Made by a program: the position numbers and the translations under genes. This document shows, in pieces, positions 1-17,847 of a DNA stretch of 29,941 bases; the stretch's first letter is position 1; the number at the start of each line of letters is the position of its first letter. Source of the stretch: a virus. Taxonomy: Duplodnaviria; Caudoviricetes. The stretch lies in the IMG/VR virus record IMGVR_UViG_3300030606_000037, positions 1 to 29,941 of that record; one strand, 5' to 3'. Below the pieces are notes generated by a model. That model did no database searches, was not told the origin of the DNA, and saw only the letters and a list, made by a program, of their open reading frames with translations.

Positions 1-2
1 CG

Positions 3-2364: not shown

Positions 2365-3514
2365 CCCCCGTAGATTCGAGCACCGCCCCGCCGTCCGTGC
2401 CGCAACGCCGCTTCTGTTCGGCATTGTCGGCCCGAGTTCCAGCGGCAAGACCTTCAGTGCGTTGCGCCTGGCGACCGGCATGCAGCGCGTCGCCGGTGGT
2501 GAGATCTTTCTCGTGGACACTGAGCACAATCGGGCGCTCGCGTACGCCGATCGCTTTCGCTTTACGCACGTTCCCTTCGCGCCGCCGTTCTCGCCGCTCG
2601 ACTACATCGACGCGATCGAGCACTGCGCCCATGCCGGCGCGCGAATCATCGTGATCGACAGCCTGTCGCACGAGCACTCAGGCCAAGGCGGCGTGCTCGA
2701 CTGGCACCAAAAGGAAGTCGACCGCCTGTCAGGCGGTGACGCCGACAAGGCGGAGCGCGTGAAAATGCTCGCGTGGGCAAAGCCGAAGGCCGCCCGCCGC
2801 AAGCTCATCAATGCGATTGTGCAGGCGAACCTCAACATCATCGCGTGCTTCCGGGCGAAGGAAAAGCTCAGGCTCGTTCGCGGGAAGGAACCCGTGCCGC
2901 TCGGTTTCATGCCAGAGGCCGGAGAAGAATTTGTTTACGAGCTGACCGCGAAGGCGCTACTGATGCCGGGCGCCGAGGGCGTGCCAACGTGGCAGCCCGA
3001 GCGCGAGGGCGAAAAGATGATGGTGAAGCTACCCGAGCAGTTCCGCGGCATTTTCACCGGCGCCAAGGGCAAGCCGCTCGACGAGGACATCGGTGAGCAG
3101 CTTGCTCAGTGGGCGGCCGGCGGAATCGGCATCGAGCTCGTCGACGCCTACTCGCACTGCGCCGACAAGGTCGCCTTCGACGCGCTCGAGAAGCGCCGGG
3201 CCGAAGCCTGGCCGCAGCTCGCGCCAGCCGAGAAAAAGACGGTCAAGCAGGCAAGCGACGAGGCCGCCGCGCGCATCGCGTCGCAGGCGACGGACGCGGC
3301 CGCCGAACCGCAGCAGGCCGATCTCGCGGCACCCGCCGACGCGGCATCCGCATTCGACGAGGACTCGGCCGTCAAGGCGCTGATGCAATGCAAGTCGCCG
3401 AAGAAGCTCGCCGACACGTGGGCCGCGATCGTCGCCGACTACCAGTCGAGCGACCGCGAGCTCCCGCTGCCGGTCGAGGCGAAGTACGAGGAGATGAGGG
3501 ACGCGCTGCAGTGA
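2354..3514 (+). CDS. AAA-family ATPase, Sak4/AAA_24-like recombination protein (386 aa)
   Basis: GGGAG RBS before ATG 2354; Walker A GPSSSGKT, VDTE, Walker B IIVIDSLSHE; acidic, Ala-rich C-terminus. Confidence 0.85.
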   Translation: MAANPRRFEHRPAVRAATPLLFGIVGPSSSGKTFSALRLATGMQRVAGGEIFLVDTEHNRALAYADRFRFTHVPFAPPFSPLDYIDAIEHCAHAGARIIVIDSLSHEHSGQGGVLDWHQKEVDRLSGGDADKAERVKMLAWAKPKAARRKLINAIVQANLNIIACFRAKEKLRLVRGKEPVPLGFMPEAGEEFVYELTAKALLMPGAEGVPTWQPEREGEKMMVKLPEQFRGIFTGAKGKPLDEDIGEQLAQWAAGGIGIELVDAYSHCADKVAFDALEKRRAEAWPQLAPAEKKTVKQASDEAAARIASQATDAAAEPQQADLAAPADAASAFDEDSAVKALMQCKSPKKLADTWAAIVADYQSSDRELPLPVEAKYEEMRDALQ

Positions 3515-3741
3515 CCTTCGACACCGACACCACCGAAGCCCATGAGCGCCGCATCACCCGCTGCCGCGAGCCGTCCTGCCGCGCGCGCATCGTATGGCTC
3601 AAGACTGCGACCGGCGCGAACATGCCATGCGATGCCGACACCGTCGAGGCTGACGACGACGAATACGACGCCACCAAACACGTCAGCCACTTCAAGACCT
3701 GCCGTGCGCCGAATCGGTTCAGCGGGCGGCGGAAGAAATAG
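3511..3741 (+). CDS. small zinc-binding phage protein (76 aa)
   Basis: GTG 3511 overlaps the upstream stop; CREPSC...IVW...SHFKTC Cys/His pattern. Confidence 0.75.
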   Translation: MTFDTDTTEAHERRITRCREPSCRARIVWLKTATGANMPCDADTVEADDDEYDATKHVSHFKTCRAPNRFSGRRKK

Positions 3742-3770
3742 GCCAGCGTCCGGTTTAGGCACGAGGACTC

Positions 3771-3971
3771 ATGTTCACCTTCACCAAAAACGGTCAACGC
3801 TACGCGGTCATTCACACGCCCTGGTCCGGTACGTGGATCGTCGGCGAATACGGGATAGCGTATCGAGGTTTATCAATGGGACGCCAGCAAGGCCCTCACC
3901 GCGGATCAGAGAGTGTCAGTGGACGCGCTGACTTGTCTGCGGTCATTCCTGCTGGCGGCCCGCCTTTTTAG
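3771..3971 (+). CDS. hypothetical protein (66 aa)
   Basis: GAGGA RBS before the ATG; codon usage in the 3' half is atypical. Confidence 0.4.
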   Translation: MFTFTKNGQRYAVIHTPWSGTWIVGEYGIAYRGLSMGRQQGPHRGSESVSGRADLSAVIPAGGPPF

Positions 3972-4072
3972 GTCACCGCCGCCAAGATCCGCATCACGAA
4001 CGAAAGCTAAAGCCAACTGGACAACCAACGCAGATCACTGTAACCACGGGACGACCCCGTAAGGAGATAGAG

Positions 4073-4210
4073 ATGGATGATCGAGAGTATCAGTTGCGAG
4101 TTGAGGCGTTGGCCAACGCGGTGCGGCATCGACTCAAAGAGGAAACCGCTGACGACATAGTGAAGTCGGCAGAGAAGTATTTCGCGTTTCTTAAAGGCGA
4201 GCAGGAGTAA
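4073..4210 (+). CDS. small hypothetical protein (45 aa, MDDREYQLRVEALANAVRHRLKEETADDIVKSAEKYFAFLKGEQE); not in the ORF track
   Basis: Strong AAGGAG RBS at 4061-4066, ATG 4073, TAA 4208-4210; amphipathic helical pattern. Confidence 0.7.
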   Translation: MDDREYQLRVEALANAVRHRLKEETADDIVKSAEKYFAFLKGEQE

Positions 4211-4218
4211 CCGCGAAT

Positions 4219-4244
4219 GGCAGGGGCGGGCAACCGCTCCTGCC
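4219..4244 (+). promoter_or_regulatory. 11-bp GC-rich hairpin with GCAA tetraloop (possible terminator, pause or mRNA-stability element)
   Basis: GGCAGGGGCGG-GCAA-CCGCTCCTGCC with one G-U pair, intergenic, no U tract directly after the stem. Confidence 0.5.
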
Positions 4245-4274
4245 TCAACCATCCAGTTTCCTTTAGGAGCAAAC

Positions 4275-4781
4275 ATGCAAGCACGAGAATGGCGAACTGT
4301 CGATAAGTCCGAATGGGACCGCGGCGAATGGGATGACGAGCCGGACAAGATGCAATGGCAGGACGAGGCTACCGGCCTGCCATGCTTGATCGTTCGTAAT
4401 CCGTCAGGCGCGCTGTGCGGCTACGTGGGAGTCGCTGAGGGGCACCCATGCTTCGGCATCAATTACGACGACGCCAAGCCCGTCACTCCCATAGATGACG
4501 ACGAGAGCGACTACATCGACGTTCACGGCGGGCTCACGTTCGCCGACTTCTGCGCCGACACTGGCGACGAGTCGAAGCATGTCTGTCACGTTCCTGATCC
4601 TGGGGAGCCCAAGCACGTATGGTGGCTTGGTTTCGACTGTGCGCATTCGGGCGATCTGAGCCCGAAGTACGCGAGATATTACCGCGAGAGAGGCTTGGGA
4701 CTCAGCGACAGGTATGAAACGTACAAAGCTCTCGGCTACGTCAAAAGCCAAGTAGCGAAGCTCGCGCGTCAGCTCGCATAG
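4275..4781 (+). CDS. conserved phage hypothetical protein (168 aa)
   Basis: AGGAG RBS; motifs CGYVG..GHP, VHGGLT and WWLGFDCAHSGD that recur in phage proteins. Confidence 0.85.
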   Translation: MQAREWRTVDKSEWDRGEWDDEPDKMQWQDEATGLPCLIVRNPSGALCGYVGVAEGHPCFGINYDDAKPVTPIDDDESDYIDVHGGLTFADFCADTGDESKHVCHVPDPGEPKHVWWLGFDCAHSGDLSPKYARYYRERGLGLSDRYETYKALGYVKSQVAKLARQLA

Positions 4782-4802
4782 CGCGCGCGCTTTCAGCCAG
4801 CA

Positions 4803-6179
4803 ATGACCTATTCAACCTTCATCGCGAACAAGCTTGCCCGCTTCCGCCCGGCCGGCTTCGAGCCCGCGGCCGTGAATCCGCACCTGTTCGATTTCCAAGA
4901 CGCCCTCACACGATGGGGGCTGCGGACCGGGCGTTGCGCGCTGTTCGCAGATACGGGCCTCGGCAAGACGCGCATGCAGCTCGCTTGGGCCGATGCCGTC
5001 CGGGTGCACGCTGGCGGCTCCGTGCTGATCCTTGCGCCGCTGGCCGTTGCAGAGCAGACCGTCGAGGAAGGCGCGGCCATGGGCATTACGGTGCGTCATG
5101 TCCGCGAAGCTGCCGCCATCGAGGGTATCTGCATCACGAACTACGAGCGCCTGCACAAGTTCGATACGTCCGCGCTGGCCGGCGCCGTGCTGGACGAATC
5201 GAGCATCATCAAGCACCACGACTCAAAGTCGTTCGGGCTGCTCACCGAGGCCTTCGCAGATACGCCGTACAAACTCTGCGCGACCGCGACGCCGGCGCCG
5301 AACGATTGGACCGAGCTTGGGACACATGCCGAGTTCCTGGGCGTGTGCTCGCGCCCGGAAATGCTGGCCGAGTTCTTCGTCCACGACGCCGCGAAAACGC
5401 AGGACTGGCGCCTCAAGGGGCACGCACGGGCAGCATTCTGGGAGTGGGTTAGCTCGTGGGCCGCGGTCGTGCGGAACCCTGCTGATATCGGCTTTGACGG
5501 CTCCCGATACGAGCTCCCATGGCTCAACGTCCAGCAACACACGATCGAGAGCGAAGCCGCGCCACTCGCTGGGCAGCTATTCGCAATGGAGGCCTCGACG
5601 CTGAGCGAGCGCCGGAACGCGCGACGCAAGTCCATCGACGCGCGCGTATCGGCATGCGCAGCTCTCGCCAACGAGACGAATGGCGCGTGGGTCGTATGGT
5701 GTGACCTCAACGCTGAATCCGAGATGCTGGCGGACGCCATCGATGGCGCCATCGAGGTCCGTGGCTCGCAGTCTCTCGACGAGAAGGAAGCGGCGCTCGA
5801 TGCCTTTAGGCACGGCAGCGCGCGCGTGATCGTCACAAAGCCATCGATCGCGGGATTCGGGCTCAACTGGCAACACTGCGCACATATGGCGTTTGTCGGC
5901 GTGACAGACAGCTACGAGAGCTATTACCAGGCGGTTAGGCGTTGCTGGCGGTTCGGTCAAACGCGGCCTGTCCAAGTGCACGTGTTCGCCTCTGATCTTG
6001 AGGGCGCCGTTGTCGCCAATTTGAACCGGAAGGAGCAGTCCGCTGCCGAGATGGCGGCCGAGATGGTCTCATTCACTGCTGAGGCCGTTCGCCGAAACGT
6101 CGTCGGCGCTCAACACTCCACGAACGAATACGAGGATCGCCACCCAATGAAGCTCCCGGAGTTTATATGCGCTGCGTAG
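4803..6179 (+). CDS. SF2 (SNF2-like) helicase of the helicase-methylase gene pair
   Basis: Walker A DTGLGKT, LDESS, TATPAPND, GFGLNWQ, QAVRRCWRFGQ. Confidence 0.9.
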   Translation: MTYSTFIANKLARFRPAGFEPAAVNPHLFDFQDALTRWGLRTGRCALFADTGLGKTRMQLAWADAVRVHAGGSVLILAPLAVAEQTVEEGAAMGITVRHVREAAAIEGICITNYERLHKFDTSALAGAVLDESSIIKHHDSKSFGLLTEAFADTPYKLCATATPAPNDWTELGTHAEFLGVCSRPEMLAEFFVHDAAKTQDWRLKGHARAAFWEWVSSWAAVVRNPADIGFDGSRYELPWLNVQQHTIESEAAPLAGQLFAMEASTLSERRNARRKSIDARVSACAALANETNGAWVVWCDLNAESEMLADAIDGAIEVRGSQSLDEKEAALDAFRHGSARVIVTKPSIAGFGLNWQHCAHMAFVGVTDSYESYYQAVRRCWRFGQTRPVQVHVFASDLEGAVVANLNRKEQSAAEMAAEMVSFTAEAVRRNVVGAQHSTNEYEDRHPMKLPEFICAA

Positions 6180-7039
6180 ACCAACGGACGGGCAAGGACT
6201 GGGCGCTGTATCTCGGCGATTGCGTCGAAGTGCTCAAGGGCATTCCCGAGCGCAGCATCCACTACTCGATATTTTCCCCGCCGTTCGCGTCGCTGTACAC
6301 GTACTCGAACAGCCCGCGCGACATGGGCAACTGCAAGACGCAGGAACAGTTCTTCGAGCACTTCGGCTATCTCGTAGACGAACTCGTGCGGATCATGCAG
6401 CCCGGCCGGGATGTGTCGTTCCATTGCATGTTGCTCCCGACGTCGAAGGCCATGAGCGGCGTGATCGGGCTCCGCGACTTCCGCGGCGAACTGATCCGAT
6501 GCTTCGAGGCTCGCGGCTTCATCCACCATTCCGAAGTCGTGATCTGGAAGGATCCAGTGACCGCCATGCAGCGCACGAAAGCGCTCGGGCTGCTGCACAA
6601 GACGGTACGCAAGAACAGCAGCATGGCGCGTCAGGGGATACCCGATTACCTCGTGACGATGCGTGCGCCTGGCGACCCCATCGAACGGGTCACGCATGAC
6701 GATTACCCGGTCGATAAGTGGCAACGCGTCGCGTCGCCCGTGTGGACCGATATCAATCCGTCGGACACGCTGCAATACCGGAGCGCGCGCGAGCACGACG
6801 ACGAGCGCCACATCGCGCCGCTGCAGCTCGAGGTCATCCGCCGCGGCATCGAGCTTTGGACGAATCCGGGCGATATCGTCCTCTCGCCGTTCGCCGGCAT
6901 CGGTAGCGAGGGATACGTCGCGATCGAGCTCGGGCGCCGATTTGTCGGCGTCGAACTGAAGCGCTCGTACTTCGAGCAGGCGTGCGCGAATCTCGCGAGC
7001 GCCGATGCGCAAGCCGATATGTTCGCGGTCAATACCTAA
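6167..7039 (+). CDS. DNA amino-methyltransferase (N4-cytosine/N6-adenine family, beta-class motif order)
   Basis: GDCVE, catalytic SPPF near the N-terminus, SAM-binding VLSPFAGIGS near the C-terminus, GVELK. Confidence 0.92.
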   Translation: MRCVDQRTGKDWALYLGDCVEVLKGIPERSIHYSIFSPPFASLYTYSNSPRDMGNCKTQEQFFEHFGYLVDELVRIMQPGRDVSFHCMLLPTSKAMSGVIGLRDFRGELIRCFEARGFIHHSEVVIWKDPVTAMQRTKALGLLHKTVRKNSSMARQGIPDYLVTMRAPGDPIERVTHDDYPVDKWQRVASPVWTDINPSDTLQYRSAREHDDERHIAPLQLEVIRRGIELWTNPGDIVLSPFAGIGSEGYVAIELGRRFVGVELKRSYFEQACANLASADAQADMFAVNT

Positions 7040-7155
7040 CTGCCGCACGGACACACGAACCCAATGACTTTTATTCTCACAATCGGGACGATTAGGCAAA
7101 ACCCTGAAACCGTTAGGATTTATTGGGACGGATTGCGATGAATAGGCTTTTGATA

Positions 7156-7203
7156 TGGCGTCCCCACGGGGATTCGAACCCCGGTTGTCGCCGTGAAAGG
7201 GCG
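7156..7203 (-). mobile_element. attP-like core: 3' half of tRNA-Glu(UUC), from the anticodon arm to CCA
   Basis: Reverse complement is CGCC-CT-TTC-AC-GGCG-ACAAC-CGGGG-TTCGAAT-CCCCG-TGGGGAC-G-CCA. No D-arm or 5' acceptor strand upstream, and phage genes lie on both sides. Confidence 0.85.
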
Positions 7204-7273
7204 TCCGAAAGAATAGCCCGCTCAATTGCCTGCGCGCAATCCTACTAGCTGCGGCTACTAGGAGAAACAGTCT

Positions 7274-7888
7274 ATGGTGGGCAACGGACAAGCCGAGCCG
7301 GTCACAGCGTTCCCGCTGCAATGGCCGGCCGGTCGCAAACGAGCGCGCTGGCGCAAACATGCCCGCTTCGGTGCGAAGCATGGCCTGACGCTCGGCAAAG
7401 CTCGCGACGACGCATTTCGTCAGATCAAGTTGCTCGGCGGCAAGCTGCCGATCCTGTCATCGAACCTCGAATTGCGGCTCGACGGGCTTCCCTATGCGAA
7501 CCAGCGCCAACCGGACGATCCTGGAGTCGCCGTCTACTTCATGTACAAGGGCACGCAGCACTGTTTCGCGTGCGACGAGTGGCACAAGGTCGAGGACAAC
7601 GTGTTCGCTATCGCCAAGACGATCGATGCCCTTCGAGGGATCGAGCGATGGGGAACTGGCGACATGCTCGAACGGGCCTTCCAAGGCTTCCAGGCGCTCC
7701 CGAATCCCGCTCAGTGGTGGCACGTGCTCGGCTTCGATTCTCTCGTTGGCGTAACGCGAGAGACGCTTGAGGACCGCTACAAGCGGCTAGCGATGCAGCG
7801 GCACCCCGACCGCGGCGGAACAACGGACTCGATGGCCGAGCTCAACTGGGCTCGCGACAAGGGCTACGAACATTTGGGAACTGGATGA
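7274..7888 (+). CDS. phage protein with C-terminal DnaJ (J) domain
   Basis: AGGAG RBS; WWHVLG...YKRLAMQRHPDRGG...ELNWA J-domain signature; FPLQWP...DPGVAVYF N-terminal domain. Confidence 0.88.
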   Translation: MVGNGQAEPVTAFPLQWPAGRKRARWRKHARFGAKHGLTLGKARDDAFRQIKLLGGKLPILSSNLELRLDGLPYANQRQPDDPGVAVYFMYKGTQHCFACDEWHKVEDNVFAIAKTIDALRGIERWGTGDMLERAFQGFQALPNPAQWWHVLGFDSLVGVTRETLEDRYKRLAMQRHPDRGGTTDSMAELNWARDKGYEHLGTG

Positions 7889-7889
7889 C

Positions 7890-8039
7890 ATGAGCAGCCG
7901 ACGTAAAAAGCGCGTGAGATTCAATTGGATGGTCCGCGCGTGGGTCGAGAACGATAGCCCGCTGGCGTTGCCGCATCACACCTACTGGTGGTGGTCGTAC
8001 ACGCACAAGAGCTGGCTCGTCAGATACGTACCTGTCTAG
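7890..8039 (+). CDS. possible small Trp-rich basic protein (49 aa)
   Basis: ATG 1 nt after the upstream stop, fills the gap; no recognisable motif. Confidence 0.35.
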   Translation: MSSRRKKRVRFNWMVRAWVENDSPLALPHHTYWWWSYTHKSWLVRYVPV

Positions 8040-8142
8040 CGCAGAGAATTTACCAATGGGCAGTCTCGGACAACTCCGGCCAGGAAACCACGTCAAAAAC
8101 GACATGGCGTCCGGGGCTGCCCGCCACTGCTGGGAGTAATCA

Positions 8143-8337
8143 GTGCCGGTATACGCCTCATACGGAACGCGCGACAAGGAAGCCAAATGCTGCGGCACTT
8201 GCGAGTACAGCTTTGGGAGCAGTGCCGCCGTAGGCATCCGGCTCGGCTGTTGGAAGGGGCACGTTAGCTGGTTTTCGATGCCGGACGACAAGCCCTGCAA
8301 TGGTAAGGACTGGGCGCCTCGAATGCGCCCGCGCTGA
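8143..8337 (+). CDS. small Cys-rich hypothetical protein (64 aa)
   Basis: GGAG RBS before GTG; CCGTCEY...C...C pattern. Confidence 0.55.
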   Translation: MPVYASYGTRDKEAKCCGTCEYSFGSSAAVGIRLGCWKGHVSWFSMPDDKPCNGKDWAPRMRPR

Positions 8338-8346
8338 GGTAAGACA

Positions 8347-8607
8347 ATGGATGATAGATCACGCGGCCTCTACGACAAGTTCCACATCGAGCGGATGGAC
8401 GGCTCTAGCGAGCCTGGCGGAAAGCACGAAGACTGCGAGTATTTCGTGCTCGACCTGACGCACGATCCGCACGCGCTACCGGCTCTCAAGGCATATGCCG
8501 ATAGCTGCCGCGTGGATTATCCGCTGCTCGCTGCCGACCTCGACAATATCCTTAGCCACAGTGGGCCGGACTCTGATGATCGCCTGCCCTCAAAGAACTC
8601 AGCATGA
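8347..8607 (+). CDS. conserved phage hypothetical protein (86 aa)
   Basis: GAGG RBS; GLYDKF..ER.DG...YFVLDLTHDPHALPALKAYA motif. Confidence 0.8.
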   Translation: MDDRSRGLYDKFHIERMDGSSEPGGKHEDCEYFVLDLTHDPHALPALKAYADSCRVDYPLLAADLDNILSHSGPDSDDRLPSKNSA

Positions 8608-8927
8608 AACAAGACATCATCAGCAAGGGCTTCGGTGCCCAGCCTGGAGAGTTCGTCTCCGTCCGCCCATGTGGCGACGAGCACGGCAACAAGACATATC
8701 TCGGCATCTATGTCGGCGACGTGAATATCGGCATTCCGAACCCGTGCATTTGGGTGCCCGATCTCAAGGAGTACATCTTTGGCTGCGAGTCGTGGTGGGG
8801 GAGGATCAAGAGCCCTGAACAGCTACGGCAAATCACCGATGCGGACATCGAGAACGTCTGGTACGTGCGGGCGCTTCGCGAGATCGAGTCAAAGCCCGCG
8901 CCTTCGGAGGACGCGAACCGTGGATAA
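8604..8927 (+). CDS. phage hypothetical protein (107 aa)
   Basis: ATGA overlap; VRPC..TYLG..NP...ESWWG...ITD.DIENVWYV. Confidence 0.8.
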   Translation: MKQDIISKGFGAQPGEFVSVRPCGDEHGNKTYLGIYVGDVNIGIPNPCIWVPDLKEYIFGCESWWGRIKSPEQLRQITDADIENVWYVRALREIESKPAPSEDANRG

Positions 8928-9123
8928 GCCGCTGCCATGTCCGTTTTGCGGCGCCGCGCCGGTCGTCGGGCCGAAAGATCCGGAGCGCGAAGGTAACGCG
9001 ATCGGGACCGTCAACTGCCAAAACAAGGAATGCTGGGCGACCGTGCAAGTCACGGTTTATCAGGACCGAGAACCGATCGCCGAGGCAATTCGGCAATGGA
9101 ATCGGAGGGACTCCGAACGATGA
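8920..9123 (+). CDS. Lar-family (restriction alleviation-like) zinc-ribbon protein (67 aa)
   Basis: GGAGG RBS, GTG 8920; LPCPFCG...CQNKEC...AIRQWNRR. Confidence 0.75.
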   Translation: MDKPLPCPFCGAAPVVGPKDPEREGNAIGTVNCQNKECWATVQVTVYQDREPIAEAIRQWNRRDSER

Positions 9124-9269
9124 AAACCGTATATGTCGTCAAGAAAGGCCGCAACGTGATCGCACTCTATGACACGCAAGGAGCTGCCGAGGCGCATTGC
9201 CGCAAGGAACCGGGTACGCGGTGGGTCGTGATGTACATGCACGAGTCTCGGGAAGGCACGCGCTCGTGA
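9120..9269 (+). CDS. small hypothetical protein (49 aa, MKTVYVV...)
   Basis: GGAGG upstream; 4-nt overlaps with both neighbours. Confidence 0.6.
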   Translation: MKTVYVVKKGRNVIALYDTQGAAEAHCRKEPGTRWVVMYMHESREGTRS

Positions 9270-9805
9270 TCTATTGGCAGCGAGTGACGAAATTCGACGT
9301 TCGCGGCTGCGCGCTAGCGGATCGTCACTACAGCCGCCGAAAGGTCGGCTCGCCTCAGTTCATGCCGCCAGGGCAGACGATTGTCTTGATCGCAGATAAC
9401 GCCGTATGGGGCTGGTGGCGTCCTCACCCTGACTCCGGGCTCAAGGCTATGAACGGGCTCGATGGCTGGACTTGTACGATCTTCCGCAACGAGGGACGGT
9501 TTCTATCTAGCGAGCTCGTGCTGGACGCCGAACGAGCGATTTCGGAAGCTGGACATAGCTGCGGCCCTGACGGCTTCCTTACCTACGTTTGGGACCGCAA
9601 AGTGCGGTCGCCTAATCCTGGGTACTGCTTCAAAATGGCAGGATGGACGGTCAAGGGGCGCAGTGCAGACGGACGTAAGACGCTGCTACAGAAACCGTGC
9701 GCGGCTAGCTCAATGGTAGAGCAGATGGCTTCCAACCATCCGACCGGAGTTCGATTCCCCGGCTGCGCTCCAACCCAACTGCCGCTGTACTCGGGAGACA
9801 CGTAG
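9266..9805 (+). CDS. putative Mom-like GNAT-fold DNA-modifying protein (179 aa)
   Basis: GTG 9266 overlaps the upstream TGA. ADRHYS near the N-terminus, FRNE..LSSELV, and LTYVW....NPGYCFKMAGW.VKG resemble the Mom-family 'HY' and 'SYAD...G.IY.A.(N/G)W...G' motifs. The ORF is well supported; the function is inferred. Confidence 0.6.
   Translation: MIYWQRVTKFDVRGCALADRHYSRRKVGSPQFMPPGQTIVLIADNAVWGWWRPHPDSGLKAMNGLDGWTCTIFRNEGRFLSSELVLDAERAISEAGHSCGPDGFLTYVWDRKVRSPNPGYCFKMAGWTVKGRSADGRKTLLQKPCAASSMVEQMASNHPTGVRFPGCAPTQLPLYSGDT
9699..9772 (+). tRNA. tRNA-Gly(UCC), 74 nt, CCA encoded, nested within CDS 9266-9805
   Basis: Acceptor GCGCGGC/GCTGCGC; TA; D-arm GCTC-AATGGTA-GAGC; anticodon arm GATGG-CT-TCC-AA-CCATC; 4-nt variable loop; T-arm CGGAG-TTCGATT-CCCCG (one A-C mismatch); discriminator T; CCA at 9770-9772. 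Confidence 0.92.
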
Positions 9806-9807
9806 CG

Positions 9808-10053
9808 ATGAGCATGCCACACGAATGCAGGTGCGAAATTTGCGGGTGCTCTATGTGGGGGCACGGCCCTAACTCTGTCGATCCAGCCGACAGACAAGAC
9901 ATCATCAACGAATTGATTCAGAAAGTACGTCAGTCGCTCGAAACGCCAACAGGACACCTAAGCCACGGCCGAATCAACATTGGCGCTGAACTCGCGAATC
10001 ACGTTGTGAGCCTGCTTAGGGCTCCCGTGATTACTGGAGGCAGCGATGCTTAG
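9808..10053 (+). CDS. hypothetical protein (81 aa)
   Basis: GGAG RBS; CRCEICGC motif; overlaps the next ORF. Confidence 0.6.
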   Translation: MSMPHECRCEICGCSMWGHGPNSVDPADRQDIINELIQKVRQSLETPTGHLSHGRINIGAELANHVVSLLRAPVITGGSDA

Positions 10054-10231
10054 AGCCCTAGCCGTCGTATGCGACCTTTGCGGCGCGACGATCAATGCCC
10101 ACGAACTACGCCCTGGGCATGAACGAGAGCAAGCACGCGCGGAGCGTGGCTGGATATATCGTGACGGCAAAGACATCTGCATGAGCTGTCAAAAACAGCC
10201 TGTTACTGGAAGCGCGGGAGAGACGGAATGA
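10046..10231 (+). CDS. small zinc-ribbon protein (61 aa)
   Basis: GGAGG RBS; VCDLCG...GW....DICMSC. Confidence 0.7.
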   Translation: MLRALAVVCDLCGATINAHELRPGHEREQARAERGWIYRDGKDICMSCQKQPVTGSAGETE

Positions 10232-10917
10232 GCGACAATTGGATCGATAGCCTGGATCACTTCATGACGACAGATGCTGGGCGCACTGCCGCTCGTATGG
10301 CAGCAAAGGAACGTGATGAACTTCTGCTCAAGCTCCACAAGCTCAGCGAGGATCACTCGCACTGCGAGGATGACAAGCACGAGCTTGGACGTCGAGCGTC
10401 CGATGCGGAGAGCAAGCTACGCAGCGTCGAGGCCGAGCGCGACGCTGCCAAGGAGTGCGAAAGGGAACGCGATGAACTGCGCGGCCTAGTTGCCAGCCCG
10501 GCCGTCTGCCAGAAACACGGCTGGCGAGGTTCGCCGTGTGCACTCTGTGAGCGCGACGATGCTCTGCGCAGATTAGGCGCGATCCGAAAAAAGTGCGAGG
10601 ACGAGCAAAATCCGTCACCACGACACGGCCGGCTTGATGCCACTGACAGGGGGCGCGTGGACTTCGCTCTGACGATTCTAGACTTGCTGGATGAGGCACC
10701 CGCCGTAGAGAAGCGCAAGCCTTTGCGAGTTACCGAAATAGAGCAGGACGGCGATGAAATCCTGTACCACTTGTCGGACGGACGTTGCGCCGTCAATCAT
10801 GTGCCATTGCTCCCTGCTGATGGAGCGCGATATATCATCGGTGACGTTTGTGCTGAATGCGGCGCAGCGCGTGGAACGCAGCACGAGCCAGAATGCGAAT
10901 GGCGCGAGTCTGAGTGA
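10228..10917 (+). CDS. hypothetical protein with coiled coil and Cys/His clusters (229 aa)
   Basis: GGAG RBS, ATGA overlap; EAERDAAKECERERDEL coiled coil; CQKH..CALC and CAECG...H...C. Confidence 0.7.
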   Translation: MSDNWIDSLDHFMTTDAGRTAARMAAKERDELLLKLHKLSEDHSHCEDDKHELGRRASDAESKLRSVEAERDAAKECERERDELRGLVASPAVCQKHGWRGSPCALCERDDALRRLGAIRKKCEDEQNPSPRHGRLDATDRGRVDFALTILDLLDEAPAVEKRKPLRVTEIEQDGDEILYHLSDGRCAVNHVPLLPADGARYIIGDVCAECGAARGTQHEPECEWRESE

Positions 10918-10919
10918 AT

Positions 10920-11066
10920 CAGTGGTCTTTAGGGATGGCGAAAGGAACTCCCGGCTTGAAAGTACGCATCAACTCCGGCCAAGAGTCATGCGGAAGCCTG
11001 CACCGGGATGAGCGATCAGCGAGCCGCCGGAGTAGCTCACCGGCCGCCATCCACTAAAGCCCTCTG
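10920..11066. ncRNA. candidate structured non-coding RNA at the early/late convergence point
   Basis: Nested complementary segments: 10927-10940 with 11045-11059, 10949-10954 with 11003-11008, 10965-10969 with 10988-10992, 10972-10975 with 10983-10986, 11026-11030 with 11040-11044. Confidence 0.55.
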
Positions 11067-11093
11067 GACGAACGAAGCACACTCAGTTAGCCA

Positions 11094-11501
11094 TTACCTG
11101 ACCAAGCGCTCACAATCGGGTTCCTGATAATCGTCCCCCGTTCTGAATCGATAGTCTCTTTTCAGGCGCGTGATCGTTGAGTTGACGCCAAATTGCCCCA
11201 TGCAGCGCAACGCAATCAAGCTGCGGAGCTCGGGCTCGATGTCGAGCTTTGCCTCGAGGCGCGATAGCCGCATTGCGAGCGCAGCGTTATTCTCATTGAA
11301 TGCGGTCTCAAGCTGCACCGCGCGCTCTGCCGTTGAGGTCTCGAGATCCCTGATGCTGTTGCGCACATTCTCGGTGATGGCTTCCTGAATGATCGGTTTC
11401 GCCACCACCCACGCCGCACCCGAGACCACGGTCAAGATAGTGATGCCCTGCACGGCTACGGAGAGCCACGGGGCTAGCGTCTTGAATGCCCCTTCGGTCA
11501 T
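11094..11501 (-). CDS. membrane-anchored coiled-coil protein in the lysis region (135 aa)
   Basis: N-terminal hydrophobic segment, then helical heptads and two Cys; ATGA overlap with the upstream gene. Confidence 0.7.
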   Translation of the reverse strand: MTEGAFKTLAPWLSVAVQGITILTVVSGAAWVVAKPIIQEAITENVRNSIRDLETSTAERAVQLETAFNENNAALAMRLSRLEAKLDIEPELRSLIALRCMGQFGVNSTITRLKRDYRFRTGDDYQEPDCERLVR

Positions 11502-11764
11502 GGCTTATCGGCCTTCAGCGCACCGGAGATTTTCTCATTTCCCTTAGATTTCTTGCCTGCCGCAAAGCTGGCTGCACGCACCTCGGCAACTAGCTCGTCC
11601 TTTATCGAATTCGTGTTATGAGCGACTTCGTGCATTGCCTTTGCCTGCGCCTGAAGTTCTTTTGAATTACGGTATGTAAGCCAGACGTTGACAAGTGTCG
11701 CGAGCGCATTCACCAGCCAGCCTAGCGACAGCAGCAGGAAGGCGATAGCAATGGTGTCGGTCAT
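11498..11764 (-). CDS. small single-TM membrane protein, lysis region (88 aa)
   Basis: IAIAFLLLSLGWLVNALATLVNVWL hydrophobic stretch and a basic C-terminus. Confidence 0.7.
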   Translation of the reverse strand: MTDTIAIAFLLLSLGWLVNALATLVNVWLTYRNSKELQAQAKAMHEVAHNTNSIKDELVAEVRAASFAAGKKSKGNEKISGALKADKP

Positions 11765-11782
11765 CGCGTCTGCGGCCCAGAG

Positions 11783-11944
11783 TCAGTTGCGCTTGTTGAC
11801 GACGATCAGCGGGCCGCTCGGCCAGCCGGTCAGGACGTGCACCGCGCCGACGATCAGCAACACCAGCGCGATCACAAAATTCGTGTCCGCGCTGAACCGC
11901 AAAAAGTCGAGCGCGAGCATGAACAAGATGAGAAATAAGATCAT
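11783..11944 (-). CDS. small two-TM membrane protein, holin-like (53 aa, MILFLILFMLALDFLRFSADTNFVIALVLLIVGAVHVLTGWPSGPLIVVNKRN); not in the ORF track
   Basis: Strong AAGGAG RBS, two hydrophobic segments, basic C-terminus. Confidence 0.7.
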   Translation of the reverse strand: MILFLILFMLALDFLRFSADTNFVIALVLLIVGAVHVLTGWPSGPLIVVNKRN

Positions 11945-11976
11945 GGTCTGTCTCCTTTGGGGTCAGCCCGCCGACC

Positions 11977-12387
11977 TTACACCGGCCCCGGCTGGATCGG
12001 GCTCTTGACGAAACGGCCGAGAATGACCGTCGCCAGCAGCAAGAGGCCCTGCGCGAACATATCGCTGTTCGTGAACGCCTCGAGCCACGGCCACGGGAAG
12101 TTGATCTCTTGAATCCCCTGAATGATCGGGATCAACGCGGCGGCTCCGACGACAGCCTGCTTGCTCGAAGTGCGCAGCATTACCGTCGGCTCGGTGCGAG
12201 TGAACTTCTCGCCGCTGGGCATTTCTACCTGGGCTTCGTCTTTCTCCTTCATGCGATCTCTCCTTTTAGGTGGAAGTCCTTTCTGCTGGCGGCGAGCGGC
12301 GCGGTCAGCCTTGCGCCGCTCTCGCTTATCGGCGCTCAACGGCCGCCACTCGCGCCAGATTTGAACCGCGAATGCCCCTAGGTTCAT
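11977..12387 (-). CDS. putative holin (136 aa from ATG 12387, or 91 aa from ATG 12252)
   Basis: Directly follows the endolysin with an ATGA overlap; two C-terminal hydrophobic segments; second in-frame ATG with AAGGAG RBS. Confidence 0.6.
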   Translation of the reverse strand: MNLGAFAVQIWREWRPLSADKRERRKADRAARRQQKGLPPKRRDRMKEKDEAQVEMPSGEKFTRTEPTVMLRTSSKQAVVGAAALIPIIQGIQEINFPWPWLEAFTNSDMFAQGLLLLATVILGRFVKSPIQPGPV

Positions 12388-12803
12388 GGCCTGACGATCC
12401 GGACCCCCGGCGCCGCGTTGTTGCGGCGGTCGACGTGCAACCACGTCTTCGTAACCTCAACGTCCTCGAGCGTCGTGAACGGGAACGCGTCCGGGTGCTC
12501 GACGATGTAGTCGAACATCTCCCGCGGCGTGGACTCCTGCGGCTTCAGGTCGAACCCGCGGCCGAAGCGGTGCATCGAGTAGCGGGCGCCCGTCGACGTG
12601 TCGAAGCTCCGCAGGCCGGACTCGCGGTACGGCCCGCCCCAGTAGTAGTTGTTGACGATGATCCGGCCGAAGCAATCGCGCAGCGCGTCGAGGCCGGCCA
12701 GCGACTCCGCGTCGAGCTGCTCCCATGCGGCGTCTCCACGCGCCTCGAGGAGCTCCGGGTACACGAGCTCGTGCAGGGCGAAATGGCGTGGGCGGTAGAT
12801 CAT
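12384..12803 (-). CDS. endolysin, peptidase M15 (zinc DD-peptidase fold), 139 aa
   Basis: HFALHEL, SGLR, SMHRFGRGFD (H-x6-D) and WLHVD zinc ligands; GAGG RBS before ATG 12803. Confidence 0.88.
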   Translation of the reverse strand: MIYRPRHFALHELVYPELLEARGDAAWEQLDAESLAGLDALRDCFGRIIVNNYYWGGPYRESGLRSFDTSTGARYSMHRFGRGFDLKPQESTPREMFDYIVEHPDAFPFTTLEDVEVTKTWLHVDRRNNAAPGVRIVRP

Positions 12804-12805
12804 GG

Positions 12806-15800
12806 TCACGAGAACCTCACCGAAATCTTCGAGATGAAGATGTCGAAATCGTTTGTACCAATACCGTCGGCGGTGATGACTGGCGCGATGGCGTCGCCGC
12901 CCACAAAAGCGCCAGAGATGTCGAGCGTGATGGTCGCCGTGTTCCATGAACCGTCCGATACCAGTCCTGAGACCTGATCGGTGTCTAGCGAGCTTTGCGC
13001 GATCCACCGGCGCCCGGCTGCTTGTGACGCCCTGTAAGGCGCCGCGGACGCCCGGATGCGCGAGCTGGCGTTCACCGTGCCGCCGGGCTCGATTCGGTAG
13101 CGGACGCGCACGGTCATCGTGTCGCCGGTGACCTCGAGCAGCGTGTTCGGATTCAGCTGCGCACCCTCGTCGCCGTCGATGTGGACGTAGGCGGCGCCCC
13201 CTCCGCCCTCACCGCTTGTCGGCTGGAATTCAAACGGGTCGCCGCCCTCAAGACCCTGAGTCCTCCAGAAGTACGTGGGGTCCGTGTCGAAGCTCTGGTC
13301 CGGCAGGATCGCAAACACAGGTGTAAGGAACGGCTGGTCGATGACTAGGCTATCGACTTCGCAAACTGCCACTGATGTCGTGCCAGCGCCGTCGTTGACT
13401 TCGAACGCAGGTCGAAAATAGCGCGTCTTCGTTTGCGCCGTGCCCGGCAGATACAGATCGCGTTGCCCCTGAAATCCTGACGTGAAGTTCGCGGTCGAGG
13501 TGCGCTGAATCAAATGCGCGAACACCCGCCGCCATTCATCGGTCCCGTATTCCTCATCGGCCTGCCAGAGGATCACCGGCCTATAGTGCGCAGTCCATGA
13601 CGCCGGGTCCGTCGTCTCCGAGCCGCCGCTGCTTGTAAACGAGGTGAGTCCGTCCTCTTTGAGCGGCAGGTAGCCGATCGACGTCTCCTCTCGGCCCGCG
13701 TCCGCCGTTACCCGCTTGTGCTGCACCTTGAAACGATAGGTGAAGCCCTCCGCGTCGTACGGAATCAGAGAGCGATGGACGAACGTGGCAGCGCCCTCGA
13801 TGCGCATGACCTTGCCGCCGTTCTCGCCGGTCTGCGGGAACGAAATCGTCGGCGAGCCGAAGAGCACGTCCCAGTGCTTGTAGAAGTCCTCCTCGGTCTC
13901 GTAGCCTTCGAAGTGCTCCTCGAACACAGTGACCGATGCGGCCTTCGGGCGCGCCTCGATCCCGGCGGTCGACGAGCTCGGGAAATAGTCGCCGACGTTG
14001 CCGTACAGGTCCTCGATCCGCGCCCACAGGTAGTGCTTCTTCGAACCGCCCGGAAGGGGCAAGAACCAGTCGAGCCGGTCCGGGTTTTCGAGGTTGTTCG
14101 TGAGCGGAAACCAGTACGACGTCGTCGTCGCGTGGTCACGGTCGTTGACGGTCCCGACGCGCACGTGGATCCGGTCCATCGCCCGCTGGTCGAGATTCGT
14201 GACATTGAGCCGAAGTGTCAGCCCGCCCACCTCCGGCAGGACGGTGAAGTCGTCCGGCGTGGGGGTCGCGAGCGTCAGCGCTTCCACTTCGTGCTGCGTC
14301 GTCGCGGACCAGCCGGAGCGCGCTCCGTAGACCGTGAGCAACTCGAGCTGCACCTCATAGGTTTCTCCCGGCTCCACGTCGAACGTAGCTGTCGAGCCAC
14401 CGCGGACGCCCTGCGCCGGCAGGATGACCCAGGGCTGCTCCTCATCGGCCTGCACGACGCGGATGCGCGCCTGCACGCGGTCGTAGAGCGTCCCCTGGAA
14501 GCTCGGCAGCCGATAGGCGACGACCATGCGGGCCGCGCGCTCGCCCGACGGCATGATCACGTCGAGATTCGGCTCCGACGAGATCTGGATGACGATCGGC
14601 TTGGGAGGAATAACGTCCTCGGGCCGCACCGGCGCCGTGATGTTCGGGTCGTAGTCCGGTATGTCGCCCGTGTCGGCGTCGAGGATCTCAGGCGCCGCGT
14701 CGACGGCCGTGATCTCTGCGCGCAGTCCCTGCCGCGGCTGCACCCGGATGATCTTGAGCGCGATGTCCTCGCTGCCCGAGACGCCGATCACCGCCATGTC
14801 GCCGACGCGAATGTCGGCGTCGAGCGTCGTCGAGGCTTTGAACGTGCGGACCGCGACGCCGGCCGGCGCCGTCACCGCATAGTCGATGACCTCGACGTCG
14901 CCGTCGGCGCGCACGACCCGGACCTTGAGCACGTAGCTCGTGCCGCTCGTGATAATGAACGACTCGTCGAGCGTGACGTTCTGTCCCCACACGCGCGTGA
15001 TGCGCCCGCGCCCGACGTTCCACAGCACGACATCGTGCTCCACGTGCACCAGGTCGCCGCGGATGCAAGCAAGGTGCTCGACGTCCATGCTCCACGTGTA
15101 GAGCGCGGGCCTGAGCCTCGCCTGCGCAAGGTGATAGCGGCCGAATTTCCACACCTCGTCCGGATCCGTCTTGCCGTCGAAGGTGACGGTCTCGAACTTC
15201 GTAGCAGTGTTCTCGTCGTAGCCGTCGTCATAGACGACGATCTCGTCCTGCTGCCAGCCCTCGTCCTCGGACAGGAACCGGCACTTGAGCCCGTGCGGCA
15301 TGTCGACGAAGCGATGCTCGAACGAGAAGCCGGACGAATTACGCGGCGTGATGAGCTGCGTCGGGACGGTCGCCTGCTCCTCGCGGATGACCGTATGCTT
15401 CGCGTCTCGAAGGCTCCGCCCGGCCCTGCCGGCCGCGGCGCAGGTACCGAGCGCATCGAACACCGTCGTCTCCTGATCGAATACGCGATCGAACTTCCGA
15501 TCGGCAGCAGCGCACGCGGCCGCCCAGGCCGCGAGCTCGTCGAGCCAGATGCGGTCCTCCGGATCGGTCACGGGACGCGCATTCGCGGGCCCGGTCAGCA
15601 TGTCGAGATAGGCCCAGGCCGGATTCCGGGTCGCCGCGGCTGCCGTGAAGGCGCTGCCGTTCCAGGTCCGCAGCTTCCGGGTCGCGACGACGTTTAACTG
15701 GTCGATGACGCCCTGCAGCGTGTCCGACGCCTTGATCCGGAGCTTCAGGAACTCGACGCCCTGATCGGTCGAGACGGCCGCAGAGTCGACGTCATGCGAC

Positions 15801-17077
15801 CGCAGCGACGTCCAGATGAACGCCTGCAGGTACTTCTCGAGCTCTGTGTCGGTGCCGTTGAATTGCACGAGGTTCTGCCACAGCGTCGTGCGCGTGACGC
15901 GGACGTCCCATTGCCCCGAGCTGCCCGTCTTCCACTTGATGCCGAAGCGCATTGCGTCGCGGCTTCGGCCGCTGACCCGGAAATCCGTGGCGTTCGCGGG
16001 GCTTGCCCGCACAGGGCCGACGTAACTGTCGGGCGCGAGCCCCGGCGTGCCGAAGATCGTGTTTGGACCAATCGTCATTTCGATCCACGTCTGCCCATCG
16101 CCGGCGACGAGCGTACGGACGTGTTGCCATGGGTCGCTCGAGCCCGCGGCACGGAACTCTATTTGGAAGTCGATCGAGACCGTACGCCGCTCACCCTTCG
16201 TGTTGACGTAGATCAGCCCGACCGGGCAGATGAAATCGACCGAGATTTCCTCGATGTCGTCCTCGGTCGTGAAGGTGGCCGTCGACGTCGGGGTGCCGGG
16301 CTTCGCCGGGTCGTCGAGCTCCTGGTTGAGCGATTGCTCAATGATCAGCGGCCAGCCCGGACTGGTCGTCTTCTCGATCTCGACGCCCTGATAGTTCGTG
16401 AGCAGCGTCTCGCCGATCTTCGCATCCGCGACGTCGTGAGAGCCGATGCCGAGCGCGAACAGCCCGTTGAAGTACTGATCGTCGCCGACGATCTCGGTAT
16501 AGGGGAGCGCGGCATAGGACGGATAGACGCGGTGACGACCGTACATCGTCGGCACGACGTCGAAAGGGCGGAACTCGTTGCGCACCCCAGTGACGGCCTG
16601 GAGCTGCCGCGGTGTTTTCTCTGGCTCGAGCGTCGGCGGCGGGATCAGAGCGTTGATCGCAAGCGAGCCTACCGCGTAAATTGCGCCGGACCAGAATGCC
16701 GCGCCGGTCGTGCCGCCTAGAAGCGCCGAGCTGCCGAACACCTTTAAGCCCGCGATCGCCGGGCCACCGAAGGCCGCAGCGGCGATGAGCCCTGCCGTCA
16801 GGATCAGTTGCTTGACGCCATCGTCCTGCGGGACGGGCACCACGGTCACGATGGCGCCGTCGGCCGGCACGAGCTCGTCCCACAGCGCGGACGGCGCCGG
16901 CTGCCCACCGACCGTCACGCAGTACGCGTTCGAGTCGCTACCGATCAGCTCCCGCAGCGTGAGGCCGGCCGGCGCGACACATTCGAATACCTCCTGGCTA
17001 AGCGCGTGGCGGACGGCGACCAGCCGAATGCCGGAAGTAGCGCGCGGTTCTTCCGTCGAGGCGGGTGATGACTGCAT
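12806..17077 (-). CDS. tail tip / host-specificity protein (lambda gpJ-like, with gpI-like N-terminal region)
   Basis: 1423 aa; VP.MYGRHRVYP, TRNPAW, IRGDLVHVEHD, FN3-like GETYEVQLE..TVYGARSGWS; last tail gene. Confidence 0.9.
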   Translation of the reverse strand: MQSSPASTEEPRATSGIRLVAVRHALSQEVFECVAPAGLTLRELIGSDSNAYCVTVGGQPAPSALWDELVPADGAIVTVVPVPQDDGVKQLILTAGLIAAAAFGGPAIAGLKVFGSSALLGGTTGAAFWSGAIYAVGSLAINALIPPPTLEPEKTPRQLQAVTGVRNEFRPFDVVPTMYGRHRVYPSYAALPYTEIVGDDQYFNGLFALGIGSHDVADAKIGETLLTNYQGVEIEKTTSPGWPLIIEQSLNQELDDPAKPGTPTSTATFTTEDDIEEISVDFICPVGLIYVNTKGERRTVSIDFQIEFRAAGSSDPWQHVRTLVAGDGQTWIEMTIGPNTIFGTPGLAPDSYVGPVRASPANATDFRVSGRSRDAMRFGIKWKTGSSGQWDVRVTRTTLWQNLVQFNGTDTELEKYLQAFIWTSLRSHDVDSAAVSTDQGVEFLKLRIKASDTLQGVIDQLNVVATRKLRTWNGSAFTAAAATRNPAWAYLDMLTGPANARPVTDPEDRIWLDELAAWAAACAAADRKFDRVFDQETTVFDALGTCAAAGRAGRSLRDAKHTVIREEQATVPTQLITPRNSSGFSFEHRFVDMPHGLKCRFLSEDEGWQQDEIVVYDDGYDENTATKFETVTFDGKTDPDEVWKFGRYHLAQARLRPALYTWSMDVEHLACIRGDLVHVEHDVVLWNVGRGRITRVWGQNVTLDESFIITSGTSYVLKVRVVRADGDVEVIDYAVTAPAGVAVRTFKASTTLDADIRVGDMAVIGVSGSEDIALKIIRVQPRQGLRAEITAVDAAPEILDADTGDIPDYDPNITAPVRPEDVIPPKPIVIQISSEPNLDVIMPSGERAARMVVAYRLPSFQGTLYDRVQARIRVVQADEEQPWVILPAQGVRGGSTATFDVEPGETYEVQLELLTVYGARSGWSATTQHEVEALTLATPTPDDFTVLPEVGGLTLRLNVTNLDQRAMDRIHVRVGTVNDRDHATTTSYWFPLTNNLENPDRLDWFLPLPGGSKKHYLWARIEDLYGNVGDYFPSSSTAGIEARPKAASVTVFEEHFEGYETEEDFYKHWDVLFGSPTISFPQTGENGGKVMRIEGAATFVHRSLIPYDAEGFTYRFKVQHKRVTADAGREETSIGYLPLKEDGLTSFTSSGGSETTDPASWTAHYRPVILWQADEEYGTDEWRRVFAHLIQRTSTANFTSGFQGQRDLYLPGTAQTKTRYFRPAFEVNDGAGTTSVAVCEVDSLVIDQPFLTPVFAILPDQSFDTDPTYFWRTQGLEGGDPFEFQPTSGEGGGGAAYVHIDGDEGAQLNPNTLLEVTGDTMTVRVRYRIEPGGTVNASSRIRASAAPYRASQAAGRRWIAQSSLDTDQVSGLVSDGSWNTATITLDISGAFVGGDAIAPVITADGIGTNDFDIFISKISVRFS

Positions 17078-17339
17078 TCGTGCCTTTTTTCGAATGGAGG
17101 ATCAGGTTCGGCTCGATGACGACGCCCACGTGCCAGCCGCCGGGCGCTCGCATGAGCGCAAGATCAAACGGTTGCGATTCGGGCACGGGCACCTCAGCGA
17201 ACAGTCGCCGGCAGGAGATCGGCTCAGCCGGCACCTCGACGCCGAGCTCCTGGCTGTAGATGAGCCGCGCCAGGGCCCAGCAGTCGTGATCCTCGTAGGG
17301 CGTACCGACATACTTGGCAGCCCACGTCGATACGCTCAA
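16998..17339 (-). CDS. NlpC/P60-family tail assembly protein (lambda gpK-like)
   Basis: YVGTPY..HDCWAL...HVGVV...ILHS catalytic Cys/His pattern; TTG start. Confidence 0.85.
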   Translation of the reverse strand: MSVSTWAAKYVGTPYEDHDCWALARLIYSQELGVEVPAEPISCRRLFAEVPVPESQPFDLALMRAPGGWHVGVVIEPNLILHSKKGTNAVITRLDGRTARYFRHSAGRRPPRA

Positions 17340-17357
17340 GGCGTTTCTCGCGAAACG

Positions 17358-17843: not shown

Positions 17844-17847
17844 GCGG

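Follow-up and report, generated by a model that had tools for sequence, protein, structure and literature searches.

The genome fragment considered here is the whole of the IMG/VR virus record IMGVR_UViG_3300030606_000037 (Duplodnaviria; Caudoviricetes), a linear stretch of 29,941 bp with 64% GC that is about 69% complete according to CheckV and is called the window below. Near the end of its block of early genes on the + strand, a single open reading frame (ORF) encodes a small protein of predicted GNAT fold and then runs through a complete tRNA-Gly(UCC) gene before reaching a stop codon. It is tentatively proposed that this tRNA is a co-transcribed glycyl donor for the enzyme encoded with it, a predicted Mom-like, aminoacyl-tRNA-dependent DNA-modifying GNAT. 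The use by the phage protein Mom of glycine from a charged tRNA for DNA hypermodification was shown only between 2023 and 2026. If the proposal is true, this would be the first case in which a tRNA-dependent DNA modification receives its donor from a virus, and phage tRNA genes would have a new role. The tRNA aside, the protein belongs to a huge, conserved and unannotated family with methyltransferase fusions, and is thus a strong candidate for carrying out a DNA modification or anti-restriction function that has not been described before.

The tRNA-Gly gene and the reading frame across it

The layout of a tRNA gene lying within an ORF on the same strand, first noticed in a preliminary description of the window, is confirmed. 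ARAGORN calls exactly one tRNA in the window, a tRNA-Gly with anticodon tcc at 9699-9772 (+ strand), in agreement with the earlier statement that no other intact tRNA is present. The gene is also the sole Rfam match in the window (RF00005, 61.8 bits for a gathering score of 29, E = 2.7e-11). Both programs and the sequence itself uphold the cloverleaf that had been drawn, with its encoded CCA at 9770-9772. The identity set of glycyl-tRNA synthetase consists of G1-C72, C2-G71, G3-C70, U73, C35 and C36, and the window tRNA has it in full. G18-G19 and the T-loop are retained and nothing marks the tRNA as non-proteinogenic. Minimum free energy folding of the tRNA alone with ViennaRNA (z = -1.5) gave an alternative T arm, and Infernal and covariation were relied on instead.

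The ORF is open from a GTG at 9266 to a TAG at 9803-9805 and comprises 179 codons. Its start is backed by the N-termini of homologues, which follow the pattern M-x-[YFH]-W-x-R-V-T-K-F-D. The conserved GNAT-fold domain occupies 9266-9697 (+ strand, codons 1-144) and ends at ...KTLLQKP; the coverage of the PHROG profile phrog_24928 (residues 4-143) and the ends of homologues agree on this limit, which is also where the domain had originally been seen to stop. The read-through part of the ORF at 9698-9805 (+ strand, codons 145-179 followed by the TAG) corresponds to the tRNA and the 3' trailer behind it; the 5' end of the tRNA falls on the second base of codon 145, so that a single base separates it from the P144 codon. 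Of the three frames across the tRNA, just one has no stop codon, and it is the frame in use. Such a read-through has a chance of about one in three, so the open frame alone is not evidence of design.

Loci of the family were gathered from IMG/VR (36), genomes (11) and metagenomes (79), leaving out the window's own copy; at least three of the metagenome loci duplicate IMG/VR loci. The domain was detected at E ≤ 1e-4 in 124 loci, and the 116 that hold the domain end and at least 110 nt downstream of it were considered testable. The closest parallel to the window is locus L051, whose protein is 86% identical and in which a tRNA-Gly again abuts K143. Among the best 120 protein matches listed, the tRNA-derived tail was found only in P0001-P0004 (76-90% identity). 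Other members of the family (116 relatives) continue for 1-63 codons past K143, with a median of about 9. In this small clade only, the tRNA has replaced the usual C-terminal tail together with the stop codon, and the tRNA-in-ORF layout is a clade-specific insertion accident and not a design of the family.

The comparison of the window with L051 indicates how the two parts of the ORF evolve. The GNAT genes have diverged to 75% nucleotide identity and 48% third-position identity, with saturated synonymous sites (pS 0.75), and a dN/dS of 0.026 indicates strong purifying selection on the protein. The tRNAs are identical at 71 of 74 bases and include a double change from C7-G66 to U7-A66, and the third codon positions of the tail are conserved, unlike those of the GNAT gene. 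Residue changes in the tail come in pairs, namely A147V with G166D (L051, P0003 and P0004), A146V with C167Y (P0004) and G161A with P165R (P0003), which would be the signature of single-base compensatory changes in the acceptor or T stem. The conservation of the tRNA and these stem-matched changes imply that the tail evolves as RNA and not as protein. Judging from the aligned sequences, the tRNA of the clade is under purifying selection as RNA and is probably functional. The sequencing runs listed for the region include no RNA run; they consist of two DNA runs of one soil sample and a run with a share of 0.04. An A.C mismatch at the fourth T-stem pair (window T arm 9747-9761), unusual for a conserved tRNA, is shared with L051 and agrees with the tails of P0001-P0003.

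Alternatively, the 35-residue read-through tail could itself be functional, extending the GNAT protein at its C-terminus, as the frame through the tRNA is open in six of six members of the clade. This openness, however, follows from the ~96% conservation of the tRNA, a third of the frames being open anyway. The pairing of residue changes as tRNA stems, the third codon positions conserved unlike those of the gene and the unrelated tails with which other members end likewise speak against a protein function, which is very improbable. The AlphaFold2 (AF2) model of the full 179-residue ORF, built on a six-sequence alignment of the clade, was uninformative for the tail (predicted local distance difference test score, pLDDT, 38.4).

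The 3' trailer of the tRNA (9773-9807, + strand) includes CTCGGGAG, which resembles a ribosome-binding site, ahead of the ATG at 9808 that opens the next ORF in the ORF list (9808-10053, + strand). About 26 nt after the tRNA (window 9773-9800, L051 409-436), this element included, are partly conserved with L051. Since the trailer is kept while the downstream genes are unrelated, gene, tRNA and trailer appear to move as one cassette. No homologue of the neighbours of the window GNAT gene was found in any related locus, and synteny could therefore not date the insertion of the tRNA. A blastn search of the window tRNA against 50,697 phage records gave no match, and a pattern of the window type had none in IMG/VR.

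The GNAT family phrog_24928, DNA methyltransferases and Mom

The window protein matches phrog_24928, a phage family of unassigned function, with an E-value of 7.2e-34, the match covering residues 4-143 of the protein and positions 3-138 of the 157 in the profile. In Pfam, no family was found for the window protein, whether taken as 179 or 144 residues, nor for 12 divergent members. The family counts 1576 clusters at 90% identity (E ≤ 1e-3) and 1434 clusters at 50% identity. In the search of representatives the best 150 matches all had E < 3e-33, and the weak tail, with a possible bridge to Mom, lies outside this view. Conservation is unusually high, as proteins 70-78% identical to the query occur across phages whose neighbouring genes show no detectable homology to those of the window. 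Among 137 diverse members, the conserved residues are H21-Y22-S23, F73-R74-N75-E76, S82, N117-P118-G119-x-C121-F122 and A125-G126-W127. Some cultured phages also carry members, annotated as hypothetical and 37-45% identical: Paenibacillus phage Lily (L130, gene LILY_60, 3462-3920), Salinibacter phage M8CR30-2 (L131, 3501-3980) and Micromonospora phage pMLP1 (32214-32645). Their presence there makes the family directly testable. Two long forms, P0254 and P0256, have a YunG domain (PF24585) C-terminal to the GNAT domain.

An AF2 model based on 32 homologues reached a pLDDT of 84.6 and has the order beta-alpha-beta3-alpha-beta-alpha-beta2. Its best Foldseek matches in the PDB were all GNAT acetyltransferases (E ~1e-3, TM-score ~0.55). 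With VIA-align, 79 of 48,161 representative chains reached Z ≥ 8, the top 50 being all GNATs, and so did 190 of the 943 Foldseek candidates. The window protein, as modelled, is of GNAT fold. Sequence searches of the PDB returned no GNAT, and the family profile gave nothing significant there. A match to T7 DNA ligase (1a0i, E = 6.6e-4, in three weak pieces) was rejected as spurious, the family profile giving an E-value of 2.7. GNATs that depend on acyl-coenzyme A (acyl-CoA) carry a pyrophosphate-binding motif Q/R-x-x-G-x-G/A between strand 4 and helix 3. In the family alignment, no conserved match to this motif was found: the corresponding segment is R74-N75-E76-G77-R78-F79, in which the last motif position fails, and residue 77 is G or S in the family.

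Several long forms of the family carry a fused DNA methyltransferase, which belongs to one of two unrelated families (PF01555 or PF00145) and can stand on either side. PF01555 precedes the GNAT domain in P0244 and follows it in P0248. PF00145 comes first in P0250, L024 (1675-3435) and L028 (1495-3435), the latter two being copies on one 130.9 kb contig, and second in P0260. A methyltransferase gene is also the immediate neighbour of the family gene in L008 and in phage Lily, where LILY_60 directly precedes N6-adenine and then cytosine DNA methyltransferase genes. Elsewhere the family gene sits among replication and recombination genes or adjoins terminase genes. In the window, too, a methyltransferase gene and a Lar-like gene are found upstream of the GNAT gene. 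From these recurrent and independent fusions and adjacencies, DNA is predicted to be the substrate, and a DNA-modifying role is predicted for phrog_24928 through guilt by association.

The enzyme with which the family invites comparison is Mom of phage Mu. According to its recent description, Mom moves glycine from Gly-tRNAGly onto adenine N6 in double-stranded DNA, and all three Escherichia coli tRNAGly isoacceptors, UCC included, serve it (PMC13219725, Silva et al. 2026). The preliminary description had named this use of Gly-tRNAGly correctly. In the same source, Mom is described as drawing on the host Gly-tRNA pool, and the proposed active site is lined by H58, Y59, R111, S124, D149, R151 and Y159 (PMC13219725). 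The replacement of H58 or Y59 by alanine drastically lowers activity, and deletion of a helix-turn-helix (HTH)-like insertion (residues ~175-209) abolishes it, so that this insertion is essential (PMC13219725).

For the comparison, Mu Mom, which scores 2.1e-75 on PF25680, was taken from the phage record, and a Mom-family alignment was built. The two families have an HYS(R)R motif after helix 1 in common. Its H21 and Y22 are 99% conserved among the 137 members of phrog_24928 and match Mom H58 and Y59 in position. A forced alignment, which is not a statistical result, sets the family FRNE(S/G) against Mom PRNSES, and the possible correspondence of R74, S82 and RNE(S/G) to Mom R111, S124 or the RNSES stretch is seen by eye or in forced alignment only. 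The nearest named ESM-Atlas cluster is PF25680 Mom (0.87), which serves as a lead only. The structural search with residues 1-144, in line with the GNAT motifs first noticed by eye, found the GNAT fold and placed Mom (8bv8_B) at rank 1 of 943 and rank 2 of 48,161 chains (Z 10.0, root-mean-square deviation 3.2, 127 residues).

Roles considered for the tRNA

tRNA-Gly genes were also found beside true mom genes. Using the Mom alignment and one mom protein, 125 mom loci were retrieved from IMG/VR, corresponding to 103 distinct contigs by name. In six of the 103 contigs, mom has a tRNA-Gly(UCC) on its own strand, 120-210 nt upstream (L180 2806-2879, L181 2800-2873, L185 2724-2797, L224 1806-1879, L228 1801-1875 and L249 633-706). 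In L180, L181 and L185, Mom is 67-68% identical to Mu Mom; the tRNAs of these three loci, which were those scanned, score 59.6-71.4 bits in Rfam. Apart from these, the mom flanks contain only a tRNA-Ala, which is on the opposite strand and close to one end of its locus. The genes follow the order antiterminator Q, tRNA-Gly, mom and lysis genes, with Q upstream of the tRNA in L180 and L185; in L185 the tRNA still adjoins mom and Q is 1.16 kb away. The mom-linked tRNAs diverge considerably from one another and from the window tRNA. In an alignment of seven tRNAs, 97.3% of the stem cells are paired and 14 of the 21 pairs show compensatory change; G1-C72, C2-G71, G3-C70 and U73, as well as C35 and C36, are invariant across the seven. 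A narrow tRNA pattern had four matches in IMG/VR, all four adjoining mom. A broad one had nine, five of them beside mom, three in tRNA arrays of phages larger than 100 kb and one solitary elsewhere. Overall, the pairing of tRNA-Gly(UCC) with Mom-type enzymes seems to recur. A megablast search of the mom and tRNA region against E. coli genomes gave no match. No report of tRNA-Gly beside mom was found in the full-text literature searched; the text of PMC13219725 makes no mention of phage tRNA genes, and 'phage-encoded tRNA' had zero matches in it.

These findings can be assembled into a mechanism in which the phrog_24928 GNAT would act on DNA with Gly-tRNAGly rather than acyl-CoA as acyl donor. 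The phage tRNA would feed the GNAT, sparing or bypassing the host pool, and could still decode GGA and GGG as well. An RNase P cut at the 5' end of the tRNA would fall before any stop codon and deprive the GNAT message of one. A given transcript could then yield the mature tRNA or the full-length protein with its tail, but not both, which would couple the two products. The supply of a glycyl donor is narrowly favored because the same glycine identity is found beside two GNAT families, one of them a proven consumer of Gly-tRNAGly, because in all cases the tRNAs lie near the gene and on its strand and were kept over deep divergence, and because of the DNA links and HYS motif of phrog_24928. A wider proposal is doubtful, according to which phage tRNA-Gly(UCC) genes would be dedicated donors for DNA-hypermodifying GNATs and would have arisen as such in both Mom and phrog_24928. 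The latter would then be a second, compact and far more abundant family, working with methyltransferases or fused to them.

Several observations weigh against a donor role of the tRNA. Some concern the enzyme. No match to PF25680 was found at E ≤ 1 for the window protein or the 12 divergent members. Alignment to Mom by hhalign, with family profiles of rising diversity (Neff 1.8, 2.7 and 4.3), was confined to 10-14 columns around HYS(R)R, with a probability of 1.5-6% and E-values of 0.006-0.034. The structural rank of Mom is tied with ordinary GNATs (Z 10.2-8.5), and the fold comparison does not single out a kinship to Mom. In the secondary-structure assignment (DSSP) and the alignment, the conserved domain stops at residue 144 after a short hairpin of strands 6 and 7, which implies that the HTH-like insertion essential in Mom is missing from the window protein. 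The window protein is a member of a distinct GNAT family and not of the Mom family, which had been the first impression; the GNAT fold and the HYS(R)R motif remain from that impression, and this distinct family may work like Mom.

Other observations of the same bearing concern the tRNA. A tRNA-Gly at the domain end was found in one of the 116 testable family loci, L051, and the idea that the family carries a dedicated tRNA in cis fails family-wide. Recurrence at the 3' ends of homologues, which the preliminary description had regarded as telling, was thus limited to this locus and the tails of P0001-P0004, whereas the covariation expected along with it was observed within the tRNA-bearing clade. 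Other tRNAs occur 0.5-1.3 kb from family genes, namely an Arg(UCU) tRNA at 0.5 kb in L041, a Glu(UUC) tRNA at 1.3 kb in L113 and a Lys tRNA at 0.55 kb in M8CR30-2, all three upstream. On the side of Mom, tRNA-Gly is absent from 97 of the 103 contigs, and among those lacking it are loci with 94% identical Mom, in which a terminator hairpin takes its place. The interval between Q and the lysis genes is a usual site for tRNA morons in lambdoid phages. One or two insertions may lie at the origin of the mom-linked tRNAs. The tRNA is at best an optional add-on, absent from more than 94% of the loci in both families, and a linkage at zero distance persists without selection. The finding was moreover picked for a GNAT beside a tRNA-Gly, and a look-elsewhere bias applies to it. 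Taken together, the interpretation first given to this locus is partly supported.

Nearly as likely as a donor role is that of an ordinary translation tRNA decoding GGA and GGG, codons rare in a high-GC host, inserted by chance with deletion of the 3' end of the GNAT gene and kept by linkage at zero distance. tRNA-Gly(UCC) is carried by T4 among other phages, and GGA is well known as a rare codon. In the window, late genes use GGC for 64% and GGA for 7% of glycine codons. The preliminary description had seen this preference rightly and had taken it to argue against codon supplementation, which it does not: GGA and GGG, both read by the UCC tRNA, together account for 25% of the glycine codons in late genes and 34% in early genes, another point that weakens the case for a glycyl donor. 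The frequency of GGA in early genes (12.3 per 1000) is double that in late genes (5.9 per 1000). In the window GNAT gene, nine of the 15 glycine codons are GGA or GGG, near the top of the family range, and the GNAT genes of the two tRNA-bearing loci, with shares of 0.60 and 0.45, stand above the family median of 0.38 (84 relatives of similar GC). The rarity of the tRNA-Gly in the family, the Arg, Glu and Lys tRNAs near other members and the broad-pattern matches in large phage tRNA arrays, or solitary and away from mom, are also expected of a translation tRNA. Such a tRNA, however, would not account for the presence of the same isoacceptor beside a known DNA modifier using Gly-tRNAGly in six of 103 contigs, with no other tRNA type on the same strand, nor for the narrow pattern being restricted to mom neighbourhoods. 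The mom genes hold only 0-2 GGA codons, with no difference between those with and without the tRNA. The pairing of both GNAT families with glycine is left unexplained by translation alone.

The surroundings of the gene bear on two further explanations. Early genes occupy 1-10917 on the + strand and encode an exonuclease and a helicase besides the DNA methyltransferase and the Lar-like protein, and structural genes lie at 11094-29840 on the - strand (terminase, portal, major head, tape measure and tail). The DNA methyltransferase gene (6167-7039, + strand; phrog_67, 8.6e-38) belongs to the same early block as the GNAT gene. The Lar-like restriction-alleviation gene (8924-9123, + strand; phrog_599, 1.6e-09), inside an ORF frame at 8779-9123, is two genes upstream of it, and the GTG at 9266 overlaps the stop of a small upstream ORF. 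A scan of 8000-11800 for sigma-70 promoters and terminators found none near the GNAT gene or the tRNA; such a scan is weak for high-GC phages. A 2-oxoglutarate-Fe(II) oxygenase-like gene (26298-26954, - strand; phrog_61, 1.8e-32) has an odd site within the structural module, between the terminase and head-tail joining genes, and may represent another nucleic-acid-modifying function.

In such an anti-restriction setting, with a Lar-like gene and a DNA methyltransferase, the tRNA might serve in counter-defence, as a spare or decoy for host tRNA-Gly that is cleaved by an anticodon nuclease or acetylated by a TacT-type GNAT toxin, the adjoining GNAT being unrelated to it. This would suit the strong purifying selection on the tRNA. 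A role of phage tRNAs against tRNA-degrading defences has been proposed, as cited in PMC10865867, and Gly-tRNAGly is the target of TacT according to PMC13219725. Here, however, neither a system that targets tRNA nor a matching feature was identified, a single tRNA is present and not a set, and the repeated pairing with GNAT and Mom is left unexplained, which makes this explanation improbable. A smaller probability still is given to a tRNA-dependent lysogeny, in which integration disrupts a host tRNA-Gly gene and the phage copy complements it. It has been documented for actinobacteriophages with a single cognate tRNA (PMC10865867), and the phage considered here has one solitary tRNA, a high GC content and a soil origin. 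But neither an integrase nor an attP is present in the 29.9 kb window, itself 69% complete, and neither the abutment with the GNAT gene nor the mom parallel is explained. A repeat search over 9000-10300 found no direct repeats flanking the tRNA.

Comparison with known systems

The supply of a glycyl donor to a DNA-modifying GNAT can be set beside several known systems. FemX/FemXAB, L/F-transferase, MprF and PacB share a GNAT-type fold and the use of charged tRNA as acyl donor. They differ in acylating peptidoglycan precursors, proteins, lipids and natural products, not DNA, and no sequence similarity of the window protein to any of them was found here. The non-proteinogenic tRNAGly of staphylococci is a precedent for isoacceptors reserved for non-ribosomal use (cited in PMC13219725), but these dedicated tRNAs are host genes and are not fused to an enzyme gene.

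Mu Mom (PF25680, 8bv8) is the closest term of comparison. Both proteins are phage-encoded GNATs with HYS(R)R after helix 1, both are without a recognisable CoA P-loop motif and both are found in a context of DNA modification or anti-restriction, and a tRNA-Gly(UCC) adjoins the gene in a minority of phages of either family. Mom is however a protein of 231 residues, compared with 144 in the window protein, which is without the HTH-like insertion and in which equivalents of Mom R111, S124, D149 and R151 are not established. The tRNA is upstream of mom by 120-210 nt, whereas in phrog_24928 it is downstream and overlaps the ORF. The chemistry of Mom is established, whereas phrog_24928 is known here from sequence and model.

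The solitary tRNA genes of temperate and lambdoid phages offer a last comparison. They resemble the present case in consisting of a single tRNA in a mid-sized genome, reading codons rare in the likely host, and the tRNA of mom phages, located between antiterminator Q and the late genes, conforms to the lambdoid arrangement. The window tRNA differs from them in that it takes the place of a conserved gene's stop codon, with the ORF running through it, and in that its glycine identity recurs beside two GNAT families, including one proven consumer of Gly-tRNAGly.

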